Shown piece after piece: positions 2,942 to 22,122 of a stretch of 32,000 bases of DNA. Origin of the DNA: Chlamydiota bacterium (GTDB lineage: Bacteria > Auribacterota > JACPWU01); NCBI GenBank assembly GCA_016196885.1, contig JACPWU010000028.1, positions 1-32,000 of the forward strand. Direction: 5' to 3'. The position numbers and the translations under genes are program-made. Below the pieces are notes generated by a model. The model saw nothing but the letters and a program-made list of their open reading frames with translations, was not told where the DNA came from and searched no databases. Position 1 is the first letter of the stretch; every line of letters starts with the position of its first letter.

Positions 2942-2975
2942 AATAATAGACAAAACTATTATTTTTTCATACTAT
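2942..2975 (+). promoter_or_regulatory. Putative sigma70-type promoter with overlapping inverted repeat (candidate operator) for the RHH-PIN operon
   Basis: -35 TAGACA (2947-2952), 17-nt spacer, -10 TACTAT (2970-2975). The inverted repeat AATAATAG (2942-2949) / CTATTATT (2956-2963) overlaps the -35. Further CTATT words lie downstream. Confidence 0.45.
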
Positions 2976-2996
2976 TCCTATTGGAATCTAATAGTT

Positions 2997-3637: not shown

Positions 3638-4563
3638 TTCAGGCTCCGACAAAAAACCTTAAAATCATTCTTGCTAAAAATCTCCAAAAAAACTACGGCT
3701 CACGCGAGGCGGTGCGCTCTATTTCGTTTGAAATTGAATCTCAAAAATGTTTTGGATTTTTGGGACCGAATGGTGCAGGGAAAAGCTCAACTTTGAAAAT
3801 GATTTATGGGGCCATTCCCTCAACATCCGGCACACTTTTGATCTTGGGAAAAGAAATGAAAAAAGAGCCTAGAGGCATCAAAGCCGTTCTGGGCGTGATC
3901 CCTCAAGAAGAAAATTTGGATCCGGAACTGAATGTTCTTGAGAATTTAATCGTTTTCTCACGTTATTTTAATATTCCTCGAAAAACAGCTTCTGAAAAAG
4001 CTTTAAATCTGCTTAATTTTTTCCATCTAAAAGACAGAGGAAATTCCAGGGTGGATGAACTTTCATCGGGTCTTAAGAAAAGGCTTCTGATTGCACGAGG
4101 TCTTATCAACGAACCCAAGATTCTCATTCTGGATGAACCCACCACGGGACTGGACCCCCAAAGCCGTCACATCATCTGGGAAAAACTCAGACAATTAAAA
4201 CATCAGGGACTCACCATTCTTCTGACCACCCACTATATGGAAGAGGCCAGCCAACTGTGTGATGACATTGTCATCATGGATCATGGCAAAATTTTAAGGA
4301 GAGGACACCCACTTCGATTAATTGAAGAAGAAGTCGGAAAAGAAATCATCGAGATTCGTTCGTCGTCGCCCATGATTGAAAAAGAAATTGCTTCGATGAA
4401 TTTGCGCTATGAGCATATCGGCGATGTTTTTTACATTTATTGCGAGAATGGACACGTGTTACTTCCCAAACTTTCTCAGATTGAACATGAGCGCGTGATT
4501 CATCGTCCAGCCACATTGGAGGATTTATTTTTGAAATTAACAGGACGGGAGTTGTCAGAGTAA
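3622..4563 (+). CDS. ABC transporter ATP-binding protein, ABC-2 exporter type (DrrA/NodI-like)
   Basis: Walker A GPNGAGKSST, signature LSSGLKKRL, Walker [14 protein letters not shown]-loop LLTTHYMEE. The start is uncertain. An in-frame TTG at 3634 lies 5 nt after GGAGG (3624-3628) and may be the real start. Confidence 0.93.
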   Translation: MEDTLIQAPTKNLKIILAKNLQKNYGSREAVRSISFEIESQKCFGFLGPNGAGKSSTLKMIYGAIPSTSGTLLILGKEMKKEPRGIKAVLGVIPQEENLDPELNVLENLIVFSRYFNIPRKTASEKALNLLNFFHLKDRGNSRVDELSSGLKKRLLIARGLINEPKILILDEPTTGLDPQSRHIIWEKLRQLKHQGLTILLTTHYMEEASQLCDDIVIMDHGKILRRGHPLRLIEEEVGKEIIEIRSSSPMIEKEIASMNLRYEHIGDVFYIYCENGHVLLPKLSQIEHERVIHRPATLEDLFLKLTGRELSE

Positions 4564-4568
4564 AAGAA

Positions 4569-4642
4569 CGTACTTCGTGCAGCGAACATCGTACATCGTT
4601 ATTTTGTTGTTGCGATGTTCGAAGTACGACGCACGATGTACA
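4569..4642. repeat. Heptad-word hairpin (CG-phased family) between the ABC ATPase and permease genes
   Basis: Left arm: cgtactt cgtgcag cgaacat cgtacat cg (4569-4598). Right arm: cgatgtt cgaagta cgacgca cgatgta ca (4613-4642). 24 of 30 positions are complementary, with a 14-nt loop. Confidence 0.8.
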
Positions 4643-4677
4643 GGATTTTCATTCGCTTGAATGGACAAAAATTGATA

Positions 4678-5454
4678 ATGACAATGATAAAAACATTAAC
4701 CCTTCGATTTGCTCTCAAAGTCTGGCAAAGAAATTTTGATGTCTGGAGAAAGTCTCTGGGTGTAAGCCTTATTGGAAGCTTGGGGGAACCTGTCCTTTAT
4801 TTACTCGGCATGGGATTTGGGCTGGGCTCTTATTTAGGAACCATGGATGGAACACCTTATCTTCAATATATTGCGCCGGGTCTTATTCTCTCCTCCGGAA
4901 TGTATGCAGCGACTTATGAATGTACGTATGGAGCATTCTTACGCATGATTCATCTCAAGACTTATGATGCCATCAGCTCAACTCCGGTGAGCCTTGAAGA
5001 AGTGATTGCAGGAGATATTTTTTGGGGAATGACCAAATGCCTCATCAGCGGCTCTATTATGTTTCTGGCCTGTCTTACATTTGGCCTCATTCATTCGGGG
5101 TGGGCTGTGGGACTTTTTCCATTGTTACTCATCGGAGGATTTCTTTTCTCGAGCTTGGCCATGTGGATCACATCCAAGGCCAAAACATTTGAATGGTTCA
5201 ACTATTATCTCGAACTTTTCATCACGCCCATGTTCTTTTTTTCAGGGATCTTTTTTCCTTTAGATCATTTTCCAAAAACCGTCCAGACCTTCGCCCGCGT
5301 TTTTCCTCTCACCCACTTGGTTCGCTCTGCCAGAGACCTCATTCAGGGAAAAATTCATCCCGGAATTTTGTTCACTTTCTTTTTCATCTTATCGATCAGT
5401 CTTGCCCTTTTCTTCATCGCCATTCGAGGTGTGGCGAAGAGATTGATCAAGTAA
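4678..5454 (+). CDS. ABC-2 type transporter permease (DrrB/NodJ-like)
   Basis: Multi-pass hydrophobic protein directly downstream of the ATPase. I moved the start from the track's 4615 (inside the hairpin) to ATG 4678 (MTMIKTLTLRF...). ATG 4684 is also possible. Confidence 0.85.
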   Translation: MTMIKTLTLRFALKVWQRNFDVWRKSLGVSLIGSLGEPVLYLLGMGFGLGSYLGTMDGTPYLQYIAPGLILSSGMYAATYECTYGAFLRMIHLKTYDAISSTPVSLEEVIAGDIFWGMTKCLISGSIMFLACLTFGLIHSGWAVGLFPLLLIGGFLFSSLAMWITSKAKTFEWFNYYLELFITPMFFFSGIFFPLDHFPKTVQTFARVFPLTHLVRSARDLIQGKIHPGILFTFFFILSISLALFFIAIRGVAKRLIK

Positions 5455-5459
5455 AAATC

Positions 5460-5657
5460 TTATTTTCCTCTTTCCCCTCTCGCTTTTTCCCAAAGTGAAA
5501 GTTTGGCCTTGGACATCGTTTGGAGAAGAAAATCATTTACTTCTTCTAACCAAGTCAGGCGATTTTGCGGTGTTGTATTCAAGAAAGAAAGCAATTGATC
5601 ATGCCCCACATCTAGTGAAAAATGATCTCTTACAAAACTACCGTTTCTTTTTTTCAC
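5460..5657 (-). CDS. Small hypothetical protein (65 aa)
   Basis: GTG start, 6 nt after AGGAGG. No recognisable motif. It sits immediately downstream of the nucleotidyltransferase remnant, so it may be the partner of a decayed two-gene cassette. Confidence 0.3.
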   Translation of the reverse strand: MKKRNGSFVRDHFSLDVGHDQLLSFLNTTPQNRLTWLEEVNDFLLQTMSKAKLSLWEKARGERGK

Positions 5658-5870
5658 TCCTTACCTCCTGACGCTTTTCCAGTTTCTTAAGTTCTTTCAA
5701 AGCTTTGATGTCCGAAAGATCCTGAGGCCTCCCGGAAATTTTCTTCAACTGTTCCAATCAAGATCCGCCGTCAGACGAACCACCCCATGCAAAACAACGG
5801 CGACTCCACCCACAACAACATACTTTACTTTATGTTTTTGAAACCCTCGGAACACATCCTCGTAATACAC
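5638..5870 (-). pseudogene. Remnant of a nucleotidyltransferase-fold gene (internal deletion and frame change)
   Basis: After RBS GGAGGAG, a GTG at 5870 opens MYYEDVFRGFQKHKVKYVVVGGVAVVLHGVVRLTADLDWNS*, with the stop at 5745. This matches the N-terminal GG..A..hG..R.T.DlD pattern of small nucleotidyltransferases. A different frame then reads LEQLKKISGRPQDLSDIKALKELKKLEKRQE..., a typical C-terminal GRPxDxxDI tail. The roughly 100-aa middle part is missing. Confidence 0.45.
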
Positions 5871-5926
5871 GATCTCCTCCTATCCCCGGCAAAACAATTC
5901 CAGAAAATGGACTATTCTCAGAGATC

Positions 5927-6328
5927 TTACCTCGTAAAATACCGATCGCTGGGAGCACCTCGTACTTCACCCTTAATTTCTGTGGGCTGAGAATTTTGAC
6001 TGATGTCTTTCATGGCTTTCACGGATTCTTCATGCCATTTTTGAAAATCGTTTAATTCCTTTTCAAACTTTTCCTGAGTCTCCTGCAATTTTTGCAAACC
6101 CTCTTCATATTTTTTTGAAACATCTTCCAATTGATGCATCACATCCTCTTCATGCCTTCTCATTTCATCAATCTGTTGAATCAGCCCTCTATAGTCCAAA
6201 ACCACATCATCGGGATGGCGCATCATTTCAGGAGGCCTTCTCTCTCTCTGGTTATTTTCAGAATCCTGAGCCATGCCAAAACCTATCCCCAGAACAAGAC
6301 ACATCAAGCACGATAAAAATTTCTTCAT
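5927..6328 (-). CDS. Small secreted coiled-coil protein, hypothetical
   Basis: The N-terminus [22 protein letters not shown] looks like a signal peptide. The rest is charged and heptad-like (EEDVMHQLEDVSKKYEEGLQKLQETQEKFEKEL). Its ATG (6328-6326) overlaps the uvrA-fusion stop TGA (6327-6325) as ATGA. Confidence 0.6.
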   Translation of the reverse strand: MKKFLSCLMCLVLGIGFGMAQDSENNQRERRPPEMMRHPDDVVLDYRGLIQQIDEMRRHEEDVMHQLEDVSKKYEEGLQKLQETQEKFEKELNDFQKWHEESVKAMKDISQNSQPTEIKGEVRGAPSDRYFTR

Positions 6329-9300
6329 AAATTCTTTTCCTTAATTTTGATTTTTGATTTTTGATTTATTTTTACTAAATACCTCCCCGTATACGATTCC
6401 TTTGCACCCATCACCTCCAGGGGAGAACCCTGGGCTACAATTCTTCCGCCGCCGGCTCCCCCTTCAGGCCCTAAATCCAAAATATAATCCGACTGACGAA
6501 TCAAATCCAAATTATGCTCGATCACAAGGACCGTGTTCCCCAAATCAACCAATTTTTGCAGAATCTTCATCAATTTTTCAATGTCGGCAAAATGGAGTCC
6601 TGTGGTCGGTTCGTCCAAAATATAAAGTGTCTTACCTCGATTTCTCTTGATCAACTCATAGGCCAATTTAATCCGCTGAGCCTCTCCCCCTGAGAGCGTC
6701 GGACTGGGCTGACCCAATTCTAAATAGCCCAGGCCTAGTTCATTCAAAAGCTTCAAAGGGTCATGGATCTTAGGAATATTTTCAAAAAAGGAAACGGCCT
6801 CTTCAAGGGTCATCCCTAAAACTTCTGCGATGGTCTTTCCTTTGAAAGAAACTTCTAATGTCTCTGGATTAAAACGGGCCCCATGACAATCATCGCAAAC
6901 CACATACACCTCGGGTAAAAAACTCATTTCGATTTTGATACGGCCCTGTCCCCCACATTTTTCGCAGCGCCCGCCCACCAAATTAAAACTGAATCGGGCG
7001 GGAGAGTAACCCCTCACCTTGGCCTCCGGCATCATGGCATAAAGCTCTCGCAGGTAGGGATAAAACCCGACATAAGTCGCCGGAATAGACCGCGGCGTTT
7101 TTCCAATAGGGGTTTGATCTACTTCAATCACCCGTTCTATTTTCTCATGGCCTAGAATTTTATCATGCGCCCCGACCCACACGGGAGATTCATCCTTCAT
7201 CCGCCGCAAGCCCTGATAAAGCACATCTCTCACCAACGTGCTTTTTCCGGATCCAGAAACTCCCGTCACACATACGAGACGCCCCAAGGGAATTTTTGCG
7301 TGAACATTTTTCAAATTATGAGCCCTCGCCCCCTTCACTTCTAAGAAAGAGGCGTCCCGCCACGGTCGAGGCTTTATTCCATTCATTTGATAAAGATTTT
7401 TTAAATAGTGGCCGGTCACAGATTTTTCTTCTGCCATAATTTGGTGAGGCGTTCCCTGGGCGATCACCCAGCCGCCTCTTCGACCTGCCCCTGGACCTAA
7501 ATCAATCACATGGTCAGAAGCCAAAATCGTTTCTTCATCATGCTCTACCACAAGCACACTGTTCCCGCGATCCCTTAATTTCTTCAATGTCTCTAGCAGT
7601 TTTTCATGATCCCGTACATGAAGTCCAATGGTCGGCTCATCCAAAATATAGCATACGCCCTGCAAGGCGGATCCCAGCTGAGCAGCCAGACGCACCCGTT
7701 GAGATTCACCTCCTGACAAACTCTGCACGGGCCGATCTAAAGTCAAATAGCCTAGACCCACCTCGTTCAAAAATTCCAGACGATGACTCCATTCTTTTAA
7801 AATGTTCTTCGCAATAAGAAGTTCCCGCTCGTCCAGTTTTAAACGCCTCACATATTGAAGCGTTTGTTGGACAGACATCGCGGTGATATCGGTAATTGAT
7901 TTCCCATGAAAAAATACCGCCCGTGCATCGGGCTTGAGCCTCGTCCCTTGACAAGCTGTACAAGTTTTTTGCCTGGCCTCATCTTCCTCCAACCAAACAT
8001 CTCCTTCTTCTTGAACCTCTTCTTTTGTGATAAATCCCAACCCGTGACATTTAGGGCAGGCCCCATGACGACTGTTAAAGGAGAAAAGGCGCGGGTCTAA
8101 CTCTTTAAAACTGATTTCGCAGCGCGGACAATAACGCTTGAGGCTGTAAAGCTCGTCTTCCCTTCCAGGAACGTTTAAGAAAAAGGAAGATTTTCCAAAC
8201 TGCAAGGCCTCTTCCACCCTTTTCTTCAATTCAAAAGCACTTTTCTCTCCTATCTTTATTTCTGCCAAAAGCGCATCAAGGGTGTGCTCTGAAAAACGCT
8301 CTAATTTAGGGATGGGCAGCACCGAACGAATGCGACCATCCACCCGGGCTTTTGAGATTCCATTTTTCTCCAATTTTTGAAAAATATCTTTGTGATAGCC
8401 CTTCTTCGCTCGAACGAGAGGCGCAAGAAATCGTACGACCTCCCCTTCATGAGACTCTGAAATCCGATCATAAATCTGACGGACTGTCTGAGAACCGATT
8501 TTCTGACCACACTGATGACAATGTTGAATGCCAATTTTGGAATACAGCAGTCTTAAAAAATGATAAATCTCAGTCACCGTGGCCACGGTAGACCGTGCAC
8601 CGCCTTGAGTCAGCCGTTGCTCGATTGCAACCGTCGGCGGAATTCCCTCAATCCAATCAATGTCGGGTCTGGATACCTGCGTCATAAACTGCCGGGCATA
8701 ACTGGACAGACTCTCAATGTAGCGACGCTGCCCTTCCGCAAAAATCACATCATACGCCAAAGTCGATTTACCCGATCCTGAAAGCCCTGTAATCACCACA
8801 AGCTTGTCTCGTGGAATTTCTACGTTGATGCTCTTCAGGTTGTGCTCGCGAGCACCGACGACGCGGATGCATCGTGAATGGGAGATGGGATTTATGGTGA
8901 GGGGTGAGGGGTGAGGGGTGAGTTCTAAGTTTTGGGTTTCGAGTTTTAAATTTTCGATTTTTGAGATGTCATTTTGATTTTCGATTTTTGATTTTTGATT
9001 TGTACCTACTCTTTTCTCTCCTAACACCTCTTTTAAAAACCTGCCCGTATGCGAGGCTTCGCATCGAGCCAACTCTTCAGGCGTTCCAACCCCCACTACT
9101 TGTCCTCCCGCTTCTCCTCCCTCCGGTCCCAAATCAATGCAATGATCTGCACATTTAATCACATCCAGATTGTGTTCAATCACCACCACAGAATTCCCGT
9201 CTTCGATCAAACGCTCAAAGGCCAACAATAATTTTTGAATGTCTTCAGGATGAAGACCCGTGGTCGGTTCATCAAACAAAAAAAGACAATTCTCTCTCCT

Positions 9301-11904
9301 GAGAATTCCCATAAAATAAGCCAATTTTAACCGTTGGGATTCCCCTCCCGAAAGCGTATTCAAAGGCTGACCCAACCTCAGATACCCCAAGCCGATCTCA
9401 TCCAAGACGTTCAAGGGGCGAGAGATTTTCAAATGCTCACGAAAAAATTCCCGCGCCTCATTCACGGTCAAATTCAGAATCTCAGAGACATTCTTTTCCT
9501 GATAACGTACCTCCAACACCTCTTTGCGATAGCGATGGCCCAAACACTCCGGACATTTCACATACACGTCTGAAAGAAATTGCATTTCAATCTTTTCGAA
9601 GCCCTCACCCTCACAGCGGTCGCACCTGCCTCCTTCTACATTGAAAGAAAATGTACTAGGTCCGTAACGACGAACCTTGGCCAAGGAAGTTCGGGCCAAT
9701 AAACCGCGAATGGGGTCAAACACCTTCAAATACGTTGCAGGATTCGATCGAGGAGTTCGGCCAATCGGATCCTGATCCACCAAAATGACATCGCCGATCT
9801 CGTCCTGACCGACAATCCCCTGACAGCGGCCAGGCTGTGCTACAAGATCTCTCCTGATCTTGCGAAGCCCCCGGTAGAGAACCTCTTCAATCAACGTACT
9901 CTTCCCAGATCCGGAAACGCCGGTAATGCAAACCAAAACATCCAAGGGAATCTTGACAGTGATTCCCTTTAAATTATTTTGTGAAGCCTTTTCAATTTGA
10001 ATGGAGCGCTGAAGGAAGGGTCTACGCCGCCTTTGAGGAATCGGAATCTCTAAGGTCCCACTTAAGTATTTTCCGGTGAGAGATGAAGGGTGCTTCATCA
10101 GATCCGAGACGGACCCTTGAAAAACAATTTGTCCTCCCCACTCCCCTGCCCCAGGGCCTAAGTCAATCACGTGATCACAATGACGAATGATGTCCGAATC
10201 ATGCTCTACCAACACCAGCGTGTTTTGATTTCTTTTAAGGCGGTGCAAAATTTGAACCAGCCGCGCATTGTCTCTCGCGTGAAGACCCATGCTGGGTTCG
10301 TCCAAAATAAAAAGGGTGTTCACCAAATTGGTGCCAATGGCCGTCGTCAAATTCACCCGCTCCACTTCTCCTCCCGAGAGCGTTTTCGAAGGACGATCCA
10401 GTGTCAAATAACCTACGCCCACATCTTTTAGATATTTCAATCTCGACTGAATTTCCTGAAGAAGCATTTTTGCAATCTTCTCCTGGGACCCTTTGAAATT
10501 GATTTGCTCAAAAAAAGTGAGTGATTCCTCCACATTCATGGCATAAATTTCGGCAATGGTTTTCCCACCCAATTTAACGCACAACACCTCCCTCTTAAAT
10601 CGCGTCCCCCTGCAATCCTGACAAATCACAAAACTGCGATACCTCGCCAGCAAGACGCGAATATGCATTTTATAGGATTTTGAATTCAGCCAATCAAAAA
10701 ATCCGCGAATCCCATACCATTGGGGCCAATCCCCCTCGCCACGTATCACCCATTCTTGAGCCCAAAGAGGTAAATCCTGAAAAGGAACATCGGTGCTCAC
10801 TCCCTTCTTTCGAGCATGCTCCATCATTTCATCTTGACACTCATGATAGGCCTCGGTCTGCCAAGGCTTCACCGCCCCTTCTTTCAAGGTCTTGCGTCGA
10901 TCTGGAATAATCATGTCCAAATCCATATCAATGTTTCTTCCAAATCCACGACAGGTCGCACAGGCCCCCAAGGGATGATTAAACGAAAAAAGATTTGGAG
11001 TTAAATCTTGATAATAAAGGTCGCAGTCGGGGCAATGATAATGAAGGCTGAATTTTAAACAGTTGGAGGTTTGTTCTTCCAACTTCCAACCTTCAACCTC
11101 TAACCGTTTTATTAAATGAATCGTCAACTTCCCCTTCCCAAACCGATATGCCTGTTCCAAAGAATCCAAACAGCGTGCTCGATTTTCGGAACTTATTTCC
11201 ATATGATCCACAAAAACCTCTAGCGTCTTGCCCCTTTCCTTCTCCAGCAAAGCCTCATCAATGGGCCGGACCTCATTTTCTAAAATGGCCTTTCGAAAAC
11301 CCATGCGCGAAAAACCTTCTAATAATTCTGAAGCCTGTAATTTGGAAGAAAGAAGTAACGGGAAACTCACCGAAAGCATTCCTGTTTTCATCTCTACAAG
11401 AGAACTGAAAACCGCCTCAGGTGTTTCCACACGAACCTCGCGACCACATTTCTGGCAAAAAAGAGTCCCCAATTTCGCAAAAACCAGTTTCACAAAATCC
11501 GTGATTTCTGTCATGGTCCCCACGGTAGAACGGGAACCCCTCACGCGGTCCGTCTGATCAATGGCAATCGCCGGCAAAATTCCTTCGATTTCGTCCACCT
11601 CTGGCTTATCCATGCGGTCCAAAAACTGGCGGGCATACGCCGAAAAACTCTCGACATAGCGGCGCTGACCCTCCGCATAAAGCGTGTCAAAGGCAAGACT
11701 GGACTTCCCAGAGCCGCTCACCCCTGTCACCACCGTCACCTCGCCCATGGGCAGGCGTACATCCACATTCTTTAAATTGTGCTGACGCACCCCCTTGAGA
11801 GAAATAAATCTAGAGCGCTCTTTCGAAGGAATGTCAGAAAAAGCCTTAACATCCACTGGTTTATTTTGAACGGGTTCTTCTAATTTCAACGACATCTCTT
11901 TCAC
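6325..11904 (-). CDS. uvrA: Tandem-fused double UvrA (two complete UvrA-like units in one 1859-aa polypeptide)
   Basis: Four ABC nucleotide-binding domains are present, with Walker A motifs [27 protein letters not shown] and GVSGSGKST and repeated LSGGE signatures. Each half begins with the UvrA signature ..G.R.HNLKN..V..P.....[28 protein letters not shown]. CxxC zinc modules are present in both halves. The GTG start at 11904 lies 5 nt after AGAGGA. Confidence 0.95.
6341..6372. repeat. Heptad-word tract (TTTTGAT x3) encoding the C-terminal tail of the UvrA fusion
   Basis: The sequence ttaattttgatttttgatttttgatttattttt encodes ...[15 protein letters not shown] on the minus strand. Confidence 0.7.
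8897..9001. repeat. 15 consecutive heptads forming the in-frame linker between the two UvrA units
   Basis: The sequence is gtgaggg x3, gtgagtt, ctaagtt, ttgggtt, tcgagtt, ttaaatt, ttcgatt, tttgaga, tgtcatt, ttgattt, tcgattt, ttgattt, ttgattt. On the minus strand it is translated as [35 protein letters not shown]. Confidence 0.85.
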
Positions 11905-12953: not shown

Positions 12954-13193
12954 ATGCAACTGCCCGCTGGCCTTTTTAAGGCGAAATGTCTTCGGCTCAT
13001 GGATGAGGTTCAAAAATTCCATCACGAAATCACCATCACAAAATTTGGGAAACCCGTGGCTAAATTGATTCCCTTTGAAGAGAAAAAATCTCCCCTCTCC
13101 CTTTTCGGCCTTCTGAAAGGAGAAATGCTCATCAAAGATGATTTGATCAAACCGATTGACGAAAGATGGGAAGCAGATGTTAAACCCGGATAA
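12954..13193 (+). CDS. Phd/YefM-family antitoxin
   Basis: MQLPAGLFKAKCLRLMDEVQKFHHEITITKFGKPVAKLIPFE matches the ..l...v....e.v.It..GkPvA.l.p pattern of Phd/YefM. It overlaps the downstream PIN gene. Confidence 0.75.
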   Translation: MQLPAGLFKAKCLRLMDEVQKFHHEITITKFGKPVAKLIPFEEKKSPLSLFGLLKGEMLIKDDLIKPIDERWEADVKPG

Positions 13194-13599
13194 GGAACTC
13201 CTGCTCTTAGATACCCACGTTTGGATTTGGCTGATGAATGGTGAGAAAAGACTCAAATCCTCCAAAGACCTTCCCAAAATCGAAAAGGCCGCCCGACATT
13301 CACAGCTTGTTATCTCTGCCATTTCCTTTTGGGAAATTGGAATGTTGGAAGCCAAGGGAAGAATTCAATTTTCACTGAGCTGTCCGGAGTGGCTTCACCA
13401 AGCTCTGTCTGTCCCTGGTATAATCCCCATCGGTCTCACGCCAGAGATCGCAGTGGAAAGCAGCCGGCTCCCTGGGTATTTTCACGCAGACCCAGCCGAT
13501 CGCATCATCGTAGCAACAGCCCGGCAATGCGGTGCCACCCTTGTCACAGCAGACAAAAATATTCTGAACTATAAAAACGTGGATACACTACGTGTTTAA
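13177..13599 (+). CDS. vapC: PIN-domain toxin VapC
   Basis: From ATG 13177: MLNPDKELLLLDTHVWIWL (Asp), ISAISFWEIGML (Glu), ADPADRIIVATA (Asp). The track start at 13156 is an upstream TTG. The gene overlaps the antitoxin by 17 nt. Confidence 0.85.
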   Translation: MLNPDKELLLLDTHVWIWLMNGEKRLKSSKDLPKIEKAARHSQLVISAISFWEIGMLEAKGRIQFSLSCPEWLHQALSVPGIIPIGLTPEIAVESSRLPGYFHADPADRIIVATARQCGATLVTADKNILNYKNVDTLRV

Positions 13600-13603
13600 A
13601 ACC

Positions 13604-14806
13604 TCACTTTTCTCTCAACCTCGAAAGATAAAATCGGTAGGATTTTTCGAGATCTGTGAATTTTAAAACTTTTTCTTTTAAGGCGTCTGGAAGCTGATCG
13701 GATTGGACAGCTTCGGAAAGGGCATTGAGATTGAGATCCGAAAATTTTTCCCATTCGCCAGCCTCCCTTACCAGCCTTTCCAAGGCCCCGCGGCGAGGGT
13801 CATCCTTCAGAGGAAATTTATATACCTCTTTCCCCTTGATTTTTAATTTATAGTCGCTGCCATGCACCACCTCCACCCCCTCTTTCTCGGCATAGGCGAT
13901 CAAGGCTTCTTTGATTTTTTCCAGTTCCTCGTCCATTTGTTTCACCAAATCATTTTTCTTGGTTGATATCTCTGCGTAACGATTGACCAAGGTGACGCCC
14001 GTTTCATTCAAATATTCATGAACCGGCAGCACCTCCACTTTCCGAAGATGTTTCATCAGGGGACAAATATCCACAAACTCACACCAGGGGCAAATCGCAC
14101 TTTCACGCGGCGGAAAATCCTTTGCAGATTCAACTTCGCGAATCACTTGAATGGTTTGCTCTCTCACTTGCGCCAAATCGGAAGGCGAGCGTTCTGAAAC
14201 AAGCTGTCGATCAAAGGCAAGATAATGCCAGACGAGGCGAACCCCTTTCACATCCGGCCATTGCTGCTGGATACCGATTTGATAAAGGGCCAACTGACGA
14301 TCCTGATCCACCTTCTCCTGTGTCGGTAAAGTCTGACCTGTTTTATAATCATGAATTTCAAGAACGCCATCTTCACCCTGGGCCAGCCGATCAATAAAAC
14401 CCATCAGGCGGTATTCCCCGCGTTCATCCAAATTGATAAAAATTTGCTGTTCCAGGCCCAAGGTTCTTGTCTGATCAAAGGGATAGAATTTTCGATAATA
14501 ATCGCGAATACATTTTTCTCCCAACTTCCGATAATTTTCAGCCGTATAATCTTTTTTAATCATCTCCACATTTTCTGACCAATTCTTGCGCCAGTCATCA
14601 TTGTAAAAGGTGAGAAGATCGCCCAGGCTGTTCATCTTGGTCACCTTTAAATCGCGGTAAAGCTTCTCAAGCGTTTCGTGAACGCGTTTGCCCAAAAAGG
14701 CCTCTATCGTCTCTCGGTCTTTCTTAATCCGATCCACGTAGCGGTATTTATATTGAAGGGGACAGGTCTCATAAGTCCCCAAGCGAGAATGAGAATAGAC
14801 TGGCAT
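13604..14806 (-). CDS. PD-(D/E)XK nuclease family protein (RecB/Cas4-like, with Cys cluster)
   Basis: N-terminus YSHSRLGTYETCPLQYKYRYV. Core GFIDRL...LEIHDYKTG (D...ExK-type). QLALYQ motif. C-terminal cluster CPWCEFVDICP, so together with the N-terminal Cys this is a Cas4/AddB-like four-Cys arrangement. A further 130 aa of unknown function follow. ATG 14806 is preferred over the track's TTG at 14815. Confidence 0.85.
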   Translation of the reverse strand: MPVYSHSRLGTYETCPLQYKYRYVDRIKKDRETIEAFLGKRVHETLEKLYRDLKVTKMNSLGDLLTFYNDDWRKNWSENVEMIKKDYTAENYRKLGEKCIRDYYRKFYPFDQTRTLGLEQQIFINLDERGEYRLMGFIDRLAQGEDGVLEIHDYKTGQTLPTQEKVDQDRQLALYQIGIQQQWPDVKGVRLVWHYLAFDRQLVSERSPSDLAQVREQTIQVIREVESAKDFPPRESAICPWCEFVDICPLMKHLRKVEVLPVHEYLNETGVTLVNRYAEISTKKNDLVKQMDEELEKIKEALIAYAEKEGVEVVHGSDYKLKIKGKEVYKFPLKDDPRRGALERLVREAGEWEKFSDLNLNALSEAVQSDQLPDALKEKVLKFTDLEKSYRFYLSRLREK

Positions 14807-14831
14807 TGTTCTCAAATCCTTTTTTAAACCT

Positions 14832-15506
14832 TTATTTTTTTAGATTCCTTTCTTCCAAGTGATGCTTGATGGTCTTTCCCTGAACCAAATAGATCACGTC
14901 CTCGCCAATGTTGGTGGCATGATCAGCAATCCGCTCCAAATGGCGGCCGATCAAAATCAGGTCCACCGCCCTTTCAATCGCCGAAGAGTCTTGAAGCATG
15001 TAAGTCAGAAGCTCTCTAAAAATCTGATCATTCAAATCATCCACTTCATCATCTCGCTCACACACACTGCGAGCCAATTTTGCATCTTGATTCACAAATG
15101 CATCAAGGCTGTCTTTTACCATTTTTTGAGCAAGATTCGCCATGCGTGGAATGTCAATCAAAGGTTTGAGAAGAGGTTTTTTCAAGAGGTCTAGCGTTCT
15201 CTCAGCAATATTAACGGCCAAATCCCCCATGCGTTCTAAATCATTCACAATTTTCATCACCATGATAATCAGCCGCAAATCCGACCCCGCCGGCTGATGA
15301 AGCGCCAAAAGTCTGAAACACATTTCCTCAATTTCAATCTCGAGCATGTTGATCACATCATCAGATCTAACCACACCTTCCGTCATAACCTCGTCTCGAT
15401 TCACCAGAGCCTTGACAGATAGGCTGATCGCATCCTCCACCAGCCCTCCCATTCTCAAAAGTTCTTGCTTTAATTTTCCCAGCTCCTCATCAAAATGTCG
15501 TTGCAT
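14832..15506 (-). CDS. phoU: Phosphate signalling complex protein PhoU
   Basis: MQRHFDEELGKLKQELLRMGGLVE... and two repeats each carrying the E/DxxxD metal motif (ERMGDLAVNIAE, ERIADHATNIGE). RBS AGGAG is upstream. Confidence 0.95.
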   Translation of the reverse strand: MQRHFDEELGKLKQELLRMGGLVEDAISLSVKALVNRDEVMTEGVVRSDDVINMLEIEIEEMCFRLLALHQPAGSDLRLIIMVMKIVNDLERMGDLAVNIAERTLDLLKKPLLKPLIDIPRMANLAQKMVKDSLDAFVNQDAKLARSVCERDDEVDDLNDQIFRELLTYMLQDSSAIERAVDLILIGRHLERIADHATNIGEDVIYLVQGKTIKHHLEERNLKK

Positions 15507-15522
15507 AATAACTCCTGTTTTT

Positions 15523-15596
15523 AGTCGTGAGTCATGGGTCGTGAGTATTAAGGTTTTTATTTTTTACTCACGACTCAAGACCCACAACCCACGACT
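15523..15596. repeat. Heptad-word hairpin, GTCGTGA family, copy 1 (pstB|phoU junction)
   Basis: Left arm: a gtcgtga gtcatgg gtcgtga gta. Right arm: tac tcacgac tcaagac ccacaac ccacgac t. The loop is ttaaggtttttatttttt. Confidence 0.85.
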
Positions 15597-15600
15597 GTTT

Positions 15601-16353
15601 TTACCCGAATCTTCCCGAAATATAATCATTCGTTCGTTGATCTACCGGATTCGTAAAAATCTTGTCCGTCTGGCCAAATTCTACAAGCTCCCCTAAGAGC
15701 ATAAATCCAACATCATCTGAAATACGAGCTGCCTGCTGCATGTTGTGCGTTACAATGACAATGGTGTAACGTTCTTTCAATTGAAAACACAGTTCTTCGA
15801 TCTTGGCTGTCGCAATAGGATCCAAAGCTGAGCAAGGCTCATCCATCAAAAGCACATCCGGTTCAATGGCCAGGAGCCTCGCAATACAAAGCCTCTGCTG
15901 CTGCTCCCCTGAAAGAGACAGGGCCGAATGGTGCAACTTGTCTTTTAACACCTCCCACAATTCTACCGCACTTAAACACCGTTCTACCAGCCCTTCTAAG
16001 TCTTTTGATTTGGCCAAGCCATGAACCCGAGGGCCATAAGCTACATTTTCAAAAATAGAAATGGGGAAAGGATTGGGCCTCTGAAAAACCATGCCAATTC
16101 TTTTTCTCAACTCGGAAAGAAGAATGTCGCGACCAAAAATATTTTTCCCATCAATCAGAACTTCACCCTCTATGCGGACGCCGTCAATTAAATCATTCAT
16201 TCGATTGAACACTCGAAGCAGAGTAGACTTCCCACAACCCGAAGGCCCAATCATAGATGTAATCCGGCACGCCTCAATGTTCATAGAAACATCTTTCAAG
16301 GCGTGGAAAGAGCTGTAGTAAAGATTTAGATCCTGCACATGAATTTTGCTCAT
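15601..16353 (-). CDS. pstB: Phosphate ABC transporter ATP-binding protein PstB, distal copy (canonical catalytic motifs, deviant signature LSGEQ)
   Basis: Walker [11 protein letters not shown]-loop [11 protein letters not shown], signature LSGEQQQRL, Walker [13 protein letters not shown]-loop IVTHNMQQA, and the C-terminal ..YISGRFG typical of PstB. Confidence 0.95.
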
Positions 16354-16363
16354 CGTTTTTTAT

Positions 16364-16446
16364 CAGTCGTGAGTCGTCAGTCGTGGGTCGTGAGTTTTAA
16401 AGGTATTTTATTTTACTCACGACTCAAAACCCACGACTCACGACTG
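16364..16446. repeat. Heptad-word hairpin, GTCGTGA family, copy 2 (pstB|pstB junction)
   Basis: Left arm: ca gtcgtga gtcgtca gtcgtgg gtcgtga gt. Right arm: ac tcacgac tcaaaac ccacgac tcacgac tg. The loop tttaaaggtattttatttt closely resembles the loop of copy 1. Confidence 0.85.
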
Positions 16447-16449
16447 CCT

Positions 16450-17193
16450 TTAACCAAACCTCCCCGTAATGTATTCCCCTGTTCTATTGTCCCTTGGGTT
16501 AGTGAAAATCTTACTGGTTCCATCAACCTCCACCAATTCTCCCATTAAAAAGAAGGCAACCCGGTCACTCACGCGAGCCGCTTGTTTGGTATTATTTGTC
16601 ACTAAAACCAATGTGTATTTTTCTTTCAGTTCAAGCATGGCCTCTTCCACCTTGGCTGTCGAAATAGGATCTAACCCAGAACAAGGCTCATCAAAAAGAA
16701 TGACTTCCGGTTCTACCGCTAAAGTCCTTGCAATGCAAAGTCTTTGCTGTTGACCTCCCGACAATTTAAAAGCAGAACTGGAAAGACGATCTTTGACCTC
16801 CTCCCAAAGATAGGAGGCCTTGAGACTTTTTTCAACAATGTCTGCCAGTTCCTTTTTTTTGTGAATTCCATGCATACGCGGACCATAAGCTACATTGTCA
16901 AAAATAGATAAAGGCAAAGGGAGAGGAAGCGCAAACACCATTCCAATTCTTTTTCTTAACAAAGAGACGTTGATTTTTTGAATATCTTCCCCATCCATAA
17001 GAACCTGCCCTTCCATTCTCACGTGAAGTTCTAAATCGTTCAAACGATTCAATGTCCTTAGAAAGGATGTTTTCCCACTGTTTGCAGGTCCAATCGCTCC
17101 CAAAATCTCATTGCGGCGTATTTCCATGGAAATACCTTTTAAGGCATGAATAGAACCATAATAAACATGAAGATCTTCAACTTTAATTTTCAT
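16450..17193 (-). CDS. pstB: PstB paralog, proximal copy (degenerate Q-loop and H-loop, canonical signature)
   Basis: Walker A GPANSGKTS, Q-loop position GMVFALPLPLP (Gln replaced by Ala), signature LSGGQQQRL, Walker B ILFDEPCSGLD, H-loop position LVTNNTKQA (His replaced by Asn), C-terminal YITGRFG. Confidence 0.93.
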   Translation of the reverse strand: MKIKVEDLHVYYGSIHALKGISMEIRRNEILGAIGPANSGKTSFLRTLNRLNDLELHVRMEGQVLMDGEDIQKINVSLLRKRIGMVFALPLPLPLSIFDNVAYGPRMHGIHKKKELADIVEKSLKASYLWEEVKDRLSSSAFKLSGGQQQRLCIARTLAVEPEVILFDEPCSGLDPISTAKVEEAMLELKEKYTLVLVTNNTKQAARVSDRVAFFLMGELVEVDGTSKIFTNPRDNRTGEYITGRFG

Positions 17194-17230: not shown

Positions 17231-18082
17231 TCACCACTGCTTTCTTCTTCTAAACCTCGCCCTGATAATCACCGCAAAAAGATTGAGAATCAGGACCATT
17301 CCGACCAACACCAAAGCTGTCCCATACTGAACTTCCGGTTTTACATTGGGAACTTGAGTTGAAAGCACATACAAATGGTAAGGAAGCACCATGACCTGAT
17401 CAAAGAAAGAATGAGGCAGGCGCGGCAAATAAAAAGCTGCAACTGTAAAAAGAACTGGAGCCGTTTCTCCTGCCGCTCGAGAAAGGCCCAAAACAATTCC
17501 CGTCAAAATCCCTGGCAAGGCATTGGGCAACACCGCATGACGAATGGTTTGCCACCCTGTCGCACCCAAAGAGAGACTGACCTCTCGAAAAGAACGTGGC
17601 ACCGTTGATAAAGCTTCTTTCGTAGATGTAATAATCACAGGAAGGGTCATGATTGCTAGGGTTAGAGCTCCAGCCAAAATTGAAGTTCCCATTTTTAGAA
17701 AAACCACAAAAAGTCCCAAACCAAAAAGGCCAAAGACAATCGAAGGAACACCCGCCAAATTTACAATCGCTACTTCCACAAAACGTTTCAATGCATGGTC
17801 TCGAGCGTATTCCACCAGATAAACAGCCGCCAAAACGCCAAAGGGAATGGCAAAAAGCATGGTCACAGACACCAAATACAAGGTCCCCACAATGGCCGGG
17901 AAAATGCCCCCTGCCTTCATGCCCATTCTCGGCATCGCAGTCAAAAATTCCCAACTGATGCCGGGCCCCCCACGAATCACAATCAGAGCAATAATGACAA
18001 AAACAGGTGCGATCACCAAAACAGTGCACAAGGACAAAAGGGAAAAAGCAATTTTTTGAGTATGACGTGGAGAGATTATCAC
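17231..18082 (-). CDS. pstA: Phosphate ABC transporter permease PstA
   Basis: Six-TM permease with the EAA-like loop (LSRAAGETAP) and PstA-like LREVSLSLGATGWQTIRHAVLP. GTG start lies after GAGGA. Confidence 0.9.
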   Translation of the reverse strand: MIISPRHTQKIAFSLLSLCTVLVIAPVFVIIALIVIRGGPGISWEFLTAMPRMGMKAGGIFPAIVGTLYLVSVTMLFAIPFGVLAAVYLVEYARDHALKRFVEVAIVNLAGVPSIVFGLFGLGLFVVFLKMGTSILAGALTLAIMTLPVIITSTKEALSTVPRSFREVSLSLGATGWQTIRHAVLPNALPGILTGIVLGLSRAAGETAPVLFTVAAFYLPRLPHSFFDQVMVLPYHLYVLSTQVPNVKPEVQYGTALVLVGMVLILNLFAVIIRARFRRRKQW

Positions 18083-18177: not shown

Positions 18178-19107
18178 TTATTTCTTTCTATGCAATACAA
18201 AATCTGCAACTAAATTCACAAGAAATGTAATTAAAAATAAAACAATTCCAATCGCAAAAAGCGCAAAGTAATGAGAGCTACCCCGAACGGCCTCTCCCAT
18301 TTCCGCGGCAATAGTCGCCGTCATGGTTCGAGCGGGATCAAAAAAACTTTTGGGTAAAATGGCCGCATTTCCTGTAATCATCATTACGGCCATCGTTTCT
18401 CCAATGACGCGACCCATTCCAAGCATCACCCCCGCTAAAATTCCAGGAGCCGCCGCAGGAATTAAAACCCGATAAATGGTTTGCCACTGAGTTGCCCCTA
18501 AAGCAAAAGAACCTTCTCGATAGCTCTTAGGAACTGCATTAAAGGCATCTTCAATAATGCTTACAATCGTAGGCATCGCCATAAAAGCCAGCATCAAAGA
18601 ACCTGAAAGGACCGTGAGTCCACTGCGTAAGTGAAAAAGATGTCTTACCAGAGGCACCAAAGTTACAAGCCCCACAAAACCAAGCACCACACTGGGAATC
18701 GCAGCCAAAAGTTCTACCCCTGCCTTAAAATAATCGCGCAAAGACCTTGGCACAATTTGGCCAATGAAAATAGCACATCCCAAACCCAGGGGTACGGCAA
18801 TCAAAACAGCTCCCAAGGTCACCCACAAAGATCCCATCAGAAGAGGAAGAACACCAAAGCGAGGAGGATCAGAAATGGGATACCAAAATTTTCCGATCAG
18901 AAAATCTTTGAGAGAAACGGTCTTAAAAAGAGACACGCCTTCTTTTAATAAAAATACAAAAATCAGAATGACAAAAAGGACAGAGGCTAAGCCACTGAGG
19001 AAAATTAGCTTTTCAATGATAAATTCAGAAATTTGTCTCTGTTGGATTTTCGTAATAGTCTCTCTTGTTTTAAAAATCCGAAGCACGAATTTCGAAATCC
19101 GAAACAA
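18178..19107 (-). CDS. pstC: Phosphate ABC transporter permease PstC
   Basis: Permease with SYREGSFALGATQWQTIYRVLIP and GRVIGETMAV (EAA loop). The start is uncertain: TTG 19107 or GTG 19086, both inside the left arm of the upstream hairpin. Confidence 0.88.
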   Translation of the reverse strand: MFRISKFVLRIFKTRETITKIQQRQISEFIIEKLIFLSGLASVLFVILIFVFLLKEGVSLFKTVSLKDFLIGKFWYPISDPPRFGVLPLLMGSLWVTLGAVLIAVPLGLGCAIFIGQIVPRSLRDYFKAGVELLAAIPSVVLGFVGLVTLVPLVRHLFHLRSGLTVLSGSLMLAFMAMPTIVSIIEDAFNAVPKSYREGSFALGATQWQTIYRVLIPAAAPGILAGVMLGMGRVIGETMAVMMITGNAAILPKSFFDPARTMTATIAAEMGEAVRGSSHYFALFAIGIVLFLITFLVNLVADFVLHRKK

Positions 19108-19210
19108 ATCCGAAAACTCAAATTTAAAATTCTAACACTTTACACTTTCAACTGTTTAGATATTTGAATTTTAAATTTGTTTCGTACTTCGTGCTTCGAA
19201 TTTCGAATTT
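19074..19210. repeat. Long heptad-word hairpin (CG-phased family) in the pstS|pstC junction
   Basis: Left arm: aaatccg aagcacg aatttcg aaatccg aaacaaatccg aaaactc aaatttaaaattc. Right arm: gaattttaaattt gttt cgtactt cgtgctt cgaattt cgaattt. The 13-nt AAATTTAAAATTC segments pair perfectly, the outer heptads pair imperfectly, and the loop is about 33 nt. CGTACTTCGTGC also occurs at 4569. Confidence 0.8.
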
Positions 19211-20054
19211 ATTTTTTCAACGGTACAAAATCCATTTGCTTCACAATTTCTTGACCTTGCGAGCTTTTTGCAAAATCAATAAACACCTTCACATTTCCCT
19301 GAGGAACGCCGCCCGTATACATGAGAAGAGGTCTTGAAATAGGATATTCTCCTTTGGAAGCGGTTTCAACCGAAGGCATGATAAAAGGTCCTTCTGGATT
19401 TTTAGAAACAGCGATTGCCTTTTCATCCTGGGTCAAATAACCCAAACCAAAATAGCCAATGGCCTCTGGATTATGCGAAACCTCTTCTGCAATCGTCTGA
19501 GAAGAAGGAAGCATCAAAATGGCAGGATCAAATTCTTCGGGGCCCTTTTCATTTCCACGTCTTACCACATGCTCTAAGAAAAAAATATGCGTCCCTGAAT
19601 TTCTCTCTCGGGAAAGCGCGACAATCTCACGATCCGGACCCCCCACTTCTTTCCAGTTCTTGATCTTCCCAGAAAAAATACCGGAAAGTTGATCAATATT
19701 AAGCTGACTCACGGGATTGTCCGGATGAACCACCACCGTCAAGGCATCAAGACCTACTACAAACTCCTTCACGTCATGCCCATTTTGCTTGGCCTGAGCA
19801 ATCTCTTCAGGTTTCATGTTCCTAGAACTCTCTGCAATGTCACAGGTCCCATTGATCAAAGCCGCAATCCCAGTCCCCGAACCTCCCCCCGTCACTGCAA
19901 TAGCCGAATCGGGATGAACCTCCATAAAGGCCTCTGCCCACGCCTGCCCCAGATTGACCATCGTATCCGATCCCTTCACCTGAATCATTTTTTCACCGGC
20001 AAAAAGAGTTGTTCCACAAAAAAGCGATATAGCAAAAACCCAAAACTTTTTCAT
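19209..20054 (-). CDS. pstS: Phosphate-binding protein PstS
   Basis: GSDTMVNLGQAWAEAF...VTGGGSGTGIAALINGTCDIAESSR is the PstS/PBP signature. I chose ATG 20054 (MKKFWVFAISLFCGTTLFAGE, signal peptide) because AGGAGG lies 6 nt upstream. The track start at 20078 would place that RBS inside the CDS. Confidence 0.9.
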   Translation of the reverse strand: MKKFWVFAISLFCGTTLFAGEKMIQVKGSDTMVNLGQAWAEAFMEVHPDSAIAVTGGGSGTGIAALINGTCDIAESSRNMKPEEIAQAKQNGHDVKEFVVGLDALTVVVHPDNPVSQLNIDQLSGIFSGKIKNWKEVGGPDREIVALSRERNSGTHIFFLEHVVRRGNEKGPEEFDPAILMLPSSQTIAEEVSHNPEAIGYFGLGYLTQDEKAIAVSKNPEGPFIMPSVETASKGEYPISRPLLMYTGGVPQGNVKVFIDFAKSSQGQEIVKQMDFVPLKK

Positions 20055-20084
20055 CCTATCCTCCTTTTTAAATTTCATTCACAA

Positions 20085-20127: not shown

Positions 20128-20793
20128 ATGTCAAATATGCTAGCATCATTACGGATGAAACAATCAAAAGAAATTGAATTTAAATGGCAATGCGAGTCCC
20201 TTCAGGATTTTCAAAAATTCATAAAAGCGGCTCACACATGGGGTCATGATTTCAGCCAAACCAAAAAAGTTTCGATCCATGATTATTACCTAGACACATC
20301 CCAACGATTCTTCGGCGAACGTCACGTCTCTTGCCGTCTTCGTAAACAAGACAAACGCTGGGAATTGACCTTGAAATCTAAATCAAAACTCAAGAGAGGA
20401 CTGGCTGAAAGACTTGAAAAAACATGGCGTCTTGGGCACCTCCTCATTTTTTCTCAGGCGCTCAACCATTGTCAAAACCACATCCTTAAAGAAACGCTAA
20501 ATTCTCAAAAACTTCAGGTGATTTTTGAAATCAGAAACAAGCGCCGCATGAAACAATTATGGATCACGCCTCACACCCAGGCCGCAATCTCTTTCGACAG
20601 CGTGAGCATCTCCAGAAAATCACGCTCCTTTCCCATGCTTGAGATTGAACTGGAATTCATTCGAGGGAATTCAGCTAGCTTTCTCTCTTTCATTCAAAAA
20701 ATTTCTCGCCTCACAAAACTCAAAGCGGCCAAAACCTCTAAAGTTGAGAGGGCACTCAAAACATTTGGACTCAGGACGCGAAAGGGACCGTGA
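20128..20793 (+). CDS. CYTH-domain protein (triphosphate tunnel metalloenzyme family)
   Basis: N-terminal ExExK motif (KEIEFKW), followed by CRLRKQ, LTLKSK, AERLE, IRNKRR, SFDSV, LEIELEF and a C-terminal TSKVERAL. This is the ordered charged-residue series of CYTH tunnels. Confidence 0.8.
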   Translation: MSNMLASLRMKQSKEIEFKWQCESLQDFQKFIKAAHTWGHDFSQTKKVSIHDYYLDTSQRFFGERHVSCRLRKQDKRWELTLKSKSKLKRGLAERLEKTWRLGHLLIFSQALNHCQNHILKETLNSQKLQVIFEIRNKRRMKQLWITPHTQAAISFDSVSISRKSRSFPMLEIELEFIRGNSASFLSFIQKISRLTKLKAAKTSKVERALKTFGLRTRKGP

Positions 20794-21982
20794 AACCAAA
20801 GGTGGATCCCCTCCCCCATTGAGATTGAACCCACACCTCACCCTTGTGGGCCTGAACAATGTGCTTCACAATGGAAAGCCCTAATCCTGTTCCTCCCACA
20901 TCGCCCAACTCGGGTCGGCCCAATCGAGGCGAGTTCACTTCTCGAGAGCGAGACTTATCTACGCGATAAAATCTTTCAAAAATCCTGGGCTGATCATCTG
21001 GAGGAATTCCAATCCCTGTATCCTTCACATTCACTTGGAGAAAATCTCCATCTTGAAAGGCACAAACCGTCACACGCCCTTTTTCAGGAGTGTATTTAAT
21101 GGCATTGTCCAGGAGATTCACCATCACCTGAGAAAGCCGCACCTCATCTCCCAACACTTGAGGAATATCTTGAGCTAAATCTGAATTCACAGAAAGAGTT
21201 TTTGCCCTCGCCGCTTGTTCCAAAATCGAAATTGCCTTTTGAATCACTCTCCTCATATCCACAGGGAGAAAAACCATTTTGACTTTTCCAGATTCCATTC
21301 GAGCCAAATCCAAAAGATCATCGACCAACTGGGACAAGCGATTGCTGTCACAGCTCACAATCTGTAGAAATTGACGAAGATCCGTCGGATTTTCCATGGC
21401 CCCATCCAGCAGCGTTTCAACATAACCCTTGATGCTGGAAAGGGGTGTGCGAAGCTCGTGAGAAACATTCGCAACAAAATCCTGTCGAACCTTTTCCAAG
21501 CGACGTAGTTCCGTAATATCATGAAAAACTAAAATGGCCCCCTCTACCTCATCTCGAATCACAACGGGCACCGCATTCACCTTAAAAAACTTTTCTTCAG
21601 GATGAGTTAACACTACCTCTTCAGTAATCAATCTATCTGTCAAACCCAGCGTTCTTTCCACAATATTTTGAATGGAAACATTTCGAATCATCTCCAAAGG
21701 GCTTTTTCCATAAGGATCCGTGTCCATCATGAATATTTTTTTGAAAGAAGGATTCGCAAAAAGAATGCGCCCCTTTGGGTCGGTAAGAAGGACTCCCTCA
21801 AACATGCTGGACAAAACAGCATCCAACTTGGCCTGTCCCATCCCCCCGGCCTCAGCCTTTTCTTTCAGATTGGACTGCGAACTCTTTAGAGAAGACTGCA
21901 AAGCTTGAATCAATCGGCGAGAACGATAGAGACGATAAAACAGAAAAAGCAGAAAAATTGTTAGTACGATTTGGAAGACCAT
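20771..21982 (-). CDS. phoR: Phosphate regulon sensor histidine kinase PhoR
   Basis: One N-terminal TM helix, a PAS-like segment, H-box FVANVSHELRTPL, N-box LLDNAIKYT, G-boxes DTGIGI and GGTGLGLSIVKHIV. ATG 21982 (MVFQIVLTIFLL...) is preferred, since the track start at 22030 is a TTG inside the hairpin repeat. The 3' end overlaps the convergent CYTH gene by 23 nt. Confidence 0.9.
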   Translation of the reverse strand: MVFQIVLTIFLLFLFYRLYRSRRLIQALQSSLKSSQSNLKEKAEAGGMGQAKLDAVLSSMFEGVLLTDPKGRILFANPSFKKIFMMDTDPYGKSPLEMIRNVSIQNIVERTLGLTDRLITEEVVLTHPEEKFFKVNAVPVVIRDEVEGAILVFHDITELRRLEKVRQDFVANVSHELRTPLSSIKGYVETLLDGAMENPTDLRQFLQIVSCDSNRLSQLVDDLLDLARMESGKVKMVFLPVDMRRVIQKAISILEQAARAKTLSVNSDLAQDIPQVLGDEVRLSQVMVNLLDNAIKYTPEKGRVTVCAFQDGDFLQVNVKDTGIGIPPDDQPRIFERFYRVDKSRSREVNSPRLGRPELGDVGGTGLGLSIVKHIVQAHKGEVWVQSQWGRGSTFGFTVPFAS

Positions 21983-22026
21983 ATTAAAATCCAGCCGTAA
22001 AAAAATACAATGACAAATTCCCAATT

Positions 22027-22122
22027 TCAAATGTCAAATCAATGACCAATGACTCAATGTCCAATGGGTCATTGGTCCATTGGAAATTAATTTGTCATTG
22101 GGTATTGGTCATTTGAAATTGA
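22027..22122. repeat. Heptad-word hairpin (CAATG / CATTG words) in the phoB|phoR junction
   Basis: The sequence is tcaaatg tcaaatc aatgacc aatgact caatgtc caatggg tcattgg tccattgg aaattaatttg tcattgg gtattgg tcatttg aaattga. Left and right halves are roughly complementary around CCAATGggtCATTGG. Confidence 0.75.

Follow-up and report, generated by a model that had tools for sequence, protein, structure and literature searches.

Degenerate ATP sites are a central and debated feature of ATP-binding cassette (ABC) exporters and of CFTR, and models of type I importers that depend on a binding protein generally assume two equivalent sites. We examined a 32,000-nucleotide stretch of DNA from an uncultured Chlamydiota bacterium (assembly GCA_016196885.1, contig JACPWU010000028.1, positions 1 to 32,000 of the forward strand; hereafter the window), which carries a complete phosphate import operon with two adjacent genes for the ATPase subunit PstB. 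We refer to the proximal PstB as N-type and to the distal PstB as E-type. As we argue below, the two copies quite probably make up an obligate N/E heterodimer, catalytic at one ATP site and degenerate at the other, which would power a single PstC/PstA importer. The PstSCAB transporter of E. coli (PDB 9k3x and 9k3s) shares with this system the TIGR00972 family of its ATPase, the length, the fold as judged by sequence, and the pstSCA/phoU context; it is built, however, with two identical PstB chains and two consensus sites, whereas the window encodes paralogues with complementary defects. According to its cryo-EM analysis (PMC12976172), each PstB ATP site draws Walker A and Walker B from one monomer and its LSGGQ signature from the second, PstA and PstC each carry one docked PstB, and PstB has no extra dimerising regulatory domain.

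Tandem pstB genes are also found in Firmicutes, as pstB1/pstB2 in E. faecalis and Listeria and as PstBA/PstBB in B. subtilis. Such pairs are likewise adjacent, about 60% identical, and embedded in a pst-phoU operon, but both of their copies have a canonical Walker A, Q-loop, signature (LSGGQ or MSGGQ) and H-loop, which is not true of the pair in the window. In E. faecalis, in fact, Walker A and LSGGQ as well as the H-loop are identical in the two copies, and the authors of that work, the only functional study, state that tandem pstB genes had not been studied before (PMC12096839). Because the Firmicute pairs are canonical, a tandem arrangement alone does not imply asymmetry.

Degenerate sites are frequent in exporters (PMC3971661; PMC7756269). 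TM287/288, TAP1/2, CFTR, BmrCD and PatAB have in common with the window pair two non-identical nucleotide-binding domains (NBDs) whose catalytic-motif deviations gather in one composite site, the other being fully consensus; in TAP, as here, the H-loop and the signature opposite it are among the motifs affected. The NBDs of these exporters, however, are fused to their transmembrane domains, whereas the PstB copies are free subunits of 247 and 250 amino acids that stand beside PstC and PstA of a type I importer. Among importers, RbsA and NupO also have one degenerate site, but they are single fused polypeptides of type II importers (PMC11466899), with a degeneracy that extends to the Walker A Lys, and are unrelated to Pst. 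In the histidine importer, one active site suffices (PMC3971661).

The N-type (16450-17193, minus strand, 247 aa) and the E-type (15601-16353, minus strand, 250 aa) of the window are 60% identical, and both score above the cut-off of the curated PstB model TIGR00972 (351.2 and 380.6 bits, respectively, versus 343.2). The N-type protein matches, at 100% identity, one deposited from a metagenome-assembled genome labelled Chlamydiae bacterium (P0001). The N-type aligns with the solved E. coli PstB (PDB 9k3x) over residues 2-247 (phmmer, E = 2e-78) with a single 2-residue gap that is distant from every motif, and a multiple alignment including E. coli, Listeria and other PstB sequences agrees on the motif positions, which can therefore be regarded as fixed. 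Misalignment of the motifs was ruled out on this basis, and with it any shift that would turn the proximal copy into a canonical one. In the N-type, Walker A reads GPANSGKTS (residues 35-43, 17065-17091), with the middle Gly replaced by Asn and Cys by Ser, and with Lys and Thr kept; the Q-loop reads MVFALP (16924-16941), with Ala88 instead of Gln; the signature LSGGQQQR (16741-16764) is canonical; Walker B (VILFDEP) keeps its Asp-Glu; the H-loop reads VTNN (16591-16602), with Asn200 at the position of the switch His; and the D-loop is SGLD in place of SALD. In the E-type, Walker A, the Q-loop (MVFQRP), Walker B and the H-loop (VTHN) are all canonical, and the signature reads LSGEQQQR (15892-15915), its second Gly being replaced by Glu150. 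Neither subunit thus has the full catalytic motif set, the N-type being without Gln and His, and the E-type without the second signature Gly. An earlier note, made from this DNA alone, had reported Ala and Asn in the Q-loop and H-loop of a proximal copy with an intact LSGGQQQR, and a distal copy that is canonical apart from LSGEQQQR, and both descriptions hold upon alignment. Its statement that the proximal P-loop is deviant is correct as to the Asn at the middle Gly, but needs to be tempered, as this Walker A still fits the pattern GxxxxGK[ST] and nucleotide binding is therefore plausible.

The motif deviations of both copies are, on the comparisons made here, well beyond chance, because Gln, His and Gly-Gly are invariant at these positions in 38/38 canonical PstB representatives, and the deviant residues are just as invariant among the 120 best database matches that we collected for each copy. 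Among N-type homologues, 120/120 have Ala in the Q-loop, Asn in the H-loop, the LSGGQ signature, Asp-Glu in Walker B and SGLD as D-loop, and all but one have the Walker A Asn. Among E-type homologues, the signature Glu, the Q-loop Gln and the H-loop His are each present in 120/120 and Walker A is canonical, while the rest of the signature drifts (LSLEQ, LSGEQ, LSPEQ, LTEEQ and IPLEQ, among others). The invariance of Asn and Glu against such a relaxed signature suggests that both residues are positively selected, and we speculate that the two touch where the gamma-phosphate would lie. SGLD was also present in 81 of 82 sequences binned as N-type, the odd one being a mis-binned E-type. In E. coli numbering, the positions specific to the N-type are T39L, G46N, C47S, S50T, M59L, Q98A, F103L, L195A, I207L, H210N and Q213K, and those specific to the E-type are I111, A137V, V143L, G156L, G157E and A223G. 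Gly is retained at position 156 in the E-type clade of the window, and at position 111, the weakest call of the set, the E-type keeps an Ile, against mostly Val in the N-type and in canonical PstBs. The strongest subfamily-specific positions lie in Walker A, Q-loop and H-loop for the N-type and in the signature for the E-type, with a few others outside of the motifs.

A representative search at 50% clustering collapses the whole PstB family, and as such gives no size for the subfamily, but it exposed wider N-type variants. In this wider clade Walker A reads GPAG[SA]GKT and the Q-loop carries Ala, Ser or Pro; VTNN and the Walker B Asp-Glu are again present in 120/120, and the partners keep the Glu in their signature (LPLEQ in locus L081, LSPEQ in L085). 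Two single-copy pstB genes with LSIGQ or LSVGQ and otherwise canonical motifs were also encountered (L094, 1962-2783, P0308; L093, 477-1322, P0328), and the first signature Gly therefore appears tolerant to substitution in presumed homodimers; the second does not. A tblastn search of plasmids returned ordinary PstB for all of the 40 listed matches (at most 59% identity), and one further record fell in the 60-80% band.

In studied ABC ATPases, each of three changes is strongly disabling: the absence of the switch His, the absence of the Q-loop Gln, and an acidic residue where the second signature Gly should be. Because of the geometry of the PstB site (PMC12976172), the deviations in catalytic motifs all fall in the one site that is made of the Walker A, Q-loop and H-loop of the N-type and the signature of the E-type. 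An N/N dimer would have Gln and His absent from both sites and an E/E dimer would have a Glu in both signatures; only the N/E combination yields one fully consensus site, and it is for this reason that we read the pair as an obligate heterodimer. In such a heterodimer, the consensus site would take its Walker A and B motifs, Q-loop and H-loop from the E-type and LSGGQ from the N-type, and would hydrolyse ATP and drive transport. The other site, with the N-type P-loop, Ala or Ser for the Q-loop Gln, Asn for His, and the E-type signature Glu, would be hydrolysis-deficient. Since in the clade of the window the N-type keeps the A-loop aromatic, the Walker A Lys and Thr and the Walker B Asp-Glu, this site probably still binds nucleotide there without turnover, and would then serve as a hinge or regulatory site that is not catalytic. 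The cost of transport would then be about 1 ATP per cycle, which is to say roughly halved.

The claim of the earlier note that all deviations fall in one site stands for the catalytic motifs. It does not extend to the D-loop, which in standard ABC dimer geometry reaches into the opposite site. The change of SALD to SGLD in the N-type would, in fact, touch the consensus site, a mild exception to the confinement of the deviations to one site. That note had also likened the arrangement to that of exporters with a degenerate site, and the likeness is apt in so far as the deviations are gathered in one site, but not with respect to the catalytic Walker B Glu. Exporter degenerate sites usually lose this residue, a loss described as their hallmark (PMC7544095), whereas the N-type keeps it, and, unlike in exporters, here the Q-loop is without its Gln and the second signature Gly has given way to an invariant Glu. 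A disease-associated parallel for this last change is CFTR G551D, where the second Gly of LSGGQ, facing the gamma-phosphate of the ATP on the opposite NBD, is also replaced by an acidic residue, with disabling of that ATP site (PMC4178940). G551D, however, is a disease mutation in the active site of a channel, whereas the Glu found here is naturally fixed, invariant, and located in an already degenerate site.

One could argue that both sites are catalytically competent, and that compensated substitutions merely tune their kinetics. The retention of the Walker A Lys, the Walker B Asp-Glu and, in the clade of the window, the A-loop aromatic in the N-type would be in line with such a scenario, but the losses of His and Gln and the acidic signature residue, each disabling, coincide in a single site, and we therefore deem it very unlikely that both sites remain competent.

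Further support for the heterodimer comes from the way the two genes travel together. We surveyed one genome per species, for a total of 80 loci, all from metagenome-assembled or single-cell genomes, and distributed among Omnitrophota (about 54), Planctomycetota (13), Elusimicrobiota (5), unclassified lineages (5), and Krumholzibacteriia, Auribacterota and Patescibacteria (one each). In 77/80 of these loci an N-type gene is directly followed, on the same strand, by an E-type gene, with the same reciprocal pattern of motifs and in the same order as in the window, and in one more locus the contig end falls inside the E-type gene. In no protein of the survey did a degenerate H-loop occur together with a degenerate signature. 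Three loci that were reached independently, from the E-type side, have the N-type upstream, and so does L085. Often there is no gap between the two genes, or they overlap (by 4 nt in L085), and their usual order is pstS-pstC-pstA-N-E-phoU, with or without phoR. On the whole, such comparative evidence (motifs, site geometry and recurrence of the pair) supports the asymmetric PstB heterodimer that the earlier note had predicted, even though the physical heterodimer, the inability of one site to hydrolyse ATP, and nucleotide occupancy are all things that we infer.

Some of the loci deserve a mention for their gene content. In L085, genes for ROK, ppx and ppk follow the pair. In L091 (5744-6853), the PhoU encoded 3' of the pair carries a fused low-molecular-weight phosphatase (LMWPc) domain, for a protein of 369 aa. 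L090, where phoU is missing, has an extra open reading frame (ORF) of 175 aa between pstA and the N-type gene (3738-4265), without a Pfam match.

In the window and in most loci the N/E pair represents the sole pstB genes of the operon, which also bears on the possibility that the N-type is a non-catalytic regulatory pseudo-ATPase, acting for instance in a complex with PhoU and PhoR, and that the E-type pairs elsewhere or tolerates its own signature. PstB is said to interact with PhoU and PhoR in E. coli (a finding attributed to Gardner et al. 2014 in a reference list), phoU follows the pair in most loci, and some genomes do have an extra canonical pstB, all of which would agree with a regulatory role. 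If this were the case, however, the E-type would have to find another partner in operons where only this pair is present, and the perfectly conserved LSGGQ and D-loop of the N-type would be difficult to account for, as these are useful only opposite the active Walker A of a partner. Furthermore, the pair also occurs without phoU in L081 and L090. We thus regard a purely regulatory N-type as very unlikely.

To address the evolution of the pair, we placed N-type, E-type and canonical PstBs in a neighbour-joining tree together with the Listeria pair and E. coli PstB. The N-type, variants included, is monophyletic (23 tips, no intruders), as is the E-type (22 tips, no intruders), and the internal topologies of the two clades are congruent. 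The Listeria pair (L083), of which both copies are canonical, falls outside of both clades; identity of the window pair with the Firmicute tandem pstB genes was ruled out by this position and by the canonical motifs of the latter. Across the 77 loci, pairwise identities of the N-type and those of the E-type correlate with r = 0.89, the mean identity is 70% for the N-type and 72% for the E-type, which indicates about equal constraint, and the N-type differs from the E-type by about 50% both within and between loci. Because of this correlation, the similar constraint and the extent of the N/E difference, the duplication can be considered old and the pair inherited as a unit. The ratio of nonsynonymous to synonymous substitution rates (Ka/Ks) of the N-type amounts to 0.05 and 0.11 when close relatives are compared; the N-type is under purifying selection, and the pair is co-inherited. 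Decay of the N-type to a pseudogene was rejected on account of these ratios, of the intact ORFs present in hundreds of clusters, and of the invariance of the substituted residues.

Co-inheritance is also relevant to a scenario in which the two paralogues work separately, either by forming their own homodimers on PstCA under different conditions or with one of the two as an accessory subunit, as was proposed for PstB1 and PstB2 of E. faecalis. The tandem copies of E. faecalis are, in fact, not equivalent, and an excess of PstB2 can replace PstB1 (PMC12096839). Yet no motif deviates in the Firmicute copies, whereas each homodimer here would have two defective sites, and separate work would leave both the strict reciprocal pattern and the co-inheritance unexplained, which makes it, in our opinion, very unlikely.

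Several observations, on the other hand, count against an obligate heterodimer with a single catalytic site. First, the heterodimer is a proposal drawn up from sequence comparison. Second, the Walker B Glu is kept in the N-type (120/120), so that slow hydrolysis might still be possible at the degenerate site, and the A-loop aromatic is frequently lost in the wider clade, so that nucleotide binding may not be universal. Third, two related Elusimicrobiota loci (L010 and L018) have no E-type within 2.9-4 kb of the N-type; neither an E-type pstB nor phoU follows the N-type within the fetched sequence. Last, a canonical single-pstB operon lies directly upstream in 9/80 loci and, separately, in L085 (on a 2.7-Mb contig), and alternative PstB pairings are conceivable where a canonical pstB adjoins the pair. 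In some organisms, then, a symmetric Pst system exists side by side with an asymmetric one. These upstream canonical operons, with or without phoU, were seen at 598-2081 in L085, 1-1294 in L021, 1-639 in L059, and in six other loci. As for L010 and L018, a gene that by eye resembles a DNA methyltransferase gene (850-873 aa) sits directly 3' of the N-type in both (5032-7653 and 2766-5318, respectively), and looks like an insertion.

A more far-reaching interpretation is that the N/E pair represents, in mechanistic terms, an ancient class of its own among type I ABC importers, combining a latch, a cost of 1 ATP per cycle, tethering of the NBDs and possibly signalling. According to this interpretation, the degenerate site would be more than an inactive one: the invariant H-loop Asn and the invariant signature Glu may meet at the gamma-phosphate position as a latch that is independent of nucleotide, or compatible with ADP; such a latch may hold together two free NBDs, as PstB has no regulatory domain through which to dimerise; and PhoU and PhoR may be informed of energy or phosphate status by the second site. 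We put forward this set of ideas tentatively, as it is rather less likely to be true than not.

The operon in the window reads phoR-pstS-pstC-pstA-pstB-pstB-phoU on the minus strand, and its pst genes and phoU were named with curated NCBIfam models, all of which scored over their cut-off. The phosphate-binding protein gene pstS lies at 19209-20078 (TIGR02136, 257 bits versus a cut-off of 206.6), the permease genes pstC and pstA at 18178-19107 (TIGR02138, 305.9 bits) and 17231-18082 (TIGR00974, 292.9 bits), and phoU at 14832-15506 (TIGR02135, 242.9 bits versus a cut-off of 130.25). Upstream of the pst genes, and also on the minus strand, is a gene for a phoR-like sensor histidine kinase (20771-22030, with Pfam PAS, HisKA and HATPase_c domains), which occupies the same position in at least 21 related loci. 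Divergent from pstS, there is an ORF encoding a CYTH domain (triphosphate tunnel metalloenzyme family; 20128-20793, plus strand); this ORF and the phoR-like gene share about 23 nt at their 3' ends, and a tie to phosphate metabolism is possible for the former. Just 3' of phoU lies a gene for a PD-(D/E)XK nuclease family protein (403 aa, 13604-14815, minus strand), adjoining a Phd/YefM-like antitoxin gene (under the Pfam cut-off) that overlaps a PIN-domain toxin gene (12954-13599, plus strand). Farther away, a UvrA-like protein of 1859 aa (6325-11904, minus strand), about twice the normal length, looks like a tandem duplication of UvrA modules.

In the window, the two pstB genes are separated by a spacer of 96 nt (16354-16449), which contains stop codons if read through in frame, and in which a long hairpin built of heptads is found (16364-16446, minus strand; RNA minimum free energy of -48 kcal/mol, z = -10). 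A second copy of the hairpin is located in the spacer between the E-type pstB and phoU (15522-15597, minus strand; -38.8 kcal/mol, z = -7.5), and the two copies therefore flank the distal pstB. The units are GTCGTGA-like heptads, and 13 of the 19 matches to this motif in the window are inside these two spacers. The element has no match to an Rfam family and no U-tail, and scans for promoters and terminators added nothing. As most related loci leave no gap between the pstB genes, or have them overlapping, the hairpin looks like a lineage-specific intercistronic element, and it might affect relative expression or mRNA processing. The start of the distal pstB has no obvious Shine-Dalgarno sequence (…ctgataaaaaacgATG), and phoU has an AGGAG upstream; a database entry (P0121) gives the E-type version as a protein of 245 aa, with a later start.

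Full-text searches of the literature, within the library that was searchable, found no description of an asymmetric PstB pair, and the matches found on cyanobacterial tandem pstB genes do not discuss their motifs. The pair recurs in uncultured bacteria by the hundreds, yet a description of it seems to be missing so far, and its near-confinement to uncultured lineages may explain why. What would be new here is the occurrence of the degenerate-site heterodimer principle with free NBDs in a type I importer such as Pst, along with an unusual set of degeneracies. If correct, these findings would provide a genetically simple system with free NBD subunits, for which a homodimeric E. coli structure is at hand for comparison, and would open to study the ATP count per import cycle, the role of a non-catalytic site, and the link to signalling through PhoU and PhoR. 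The asymmetric pair spans Chlamydiota, Omnitrophota, Planctomycetota and Elusimicrobiota, and the generic annotation of both genes as phosphate-transporter ATPases hides that neither of the two is likely to work alone, a point that bears on the metabolic reconstruction of these uncultured lineages.

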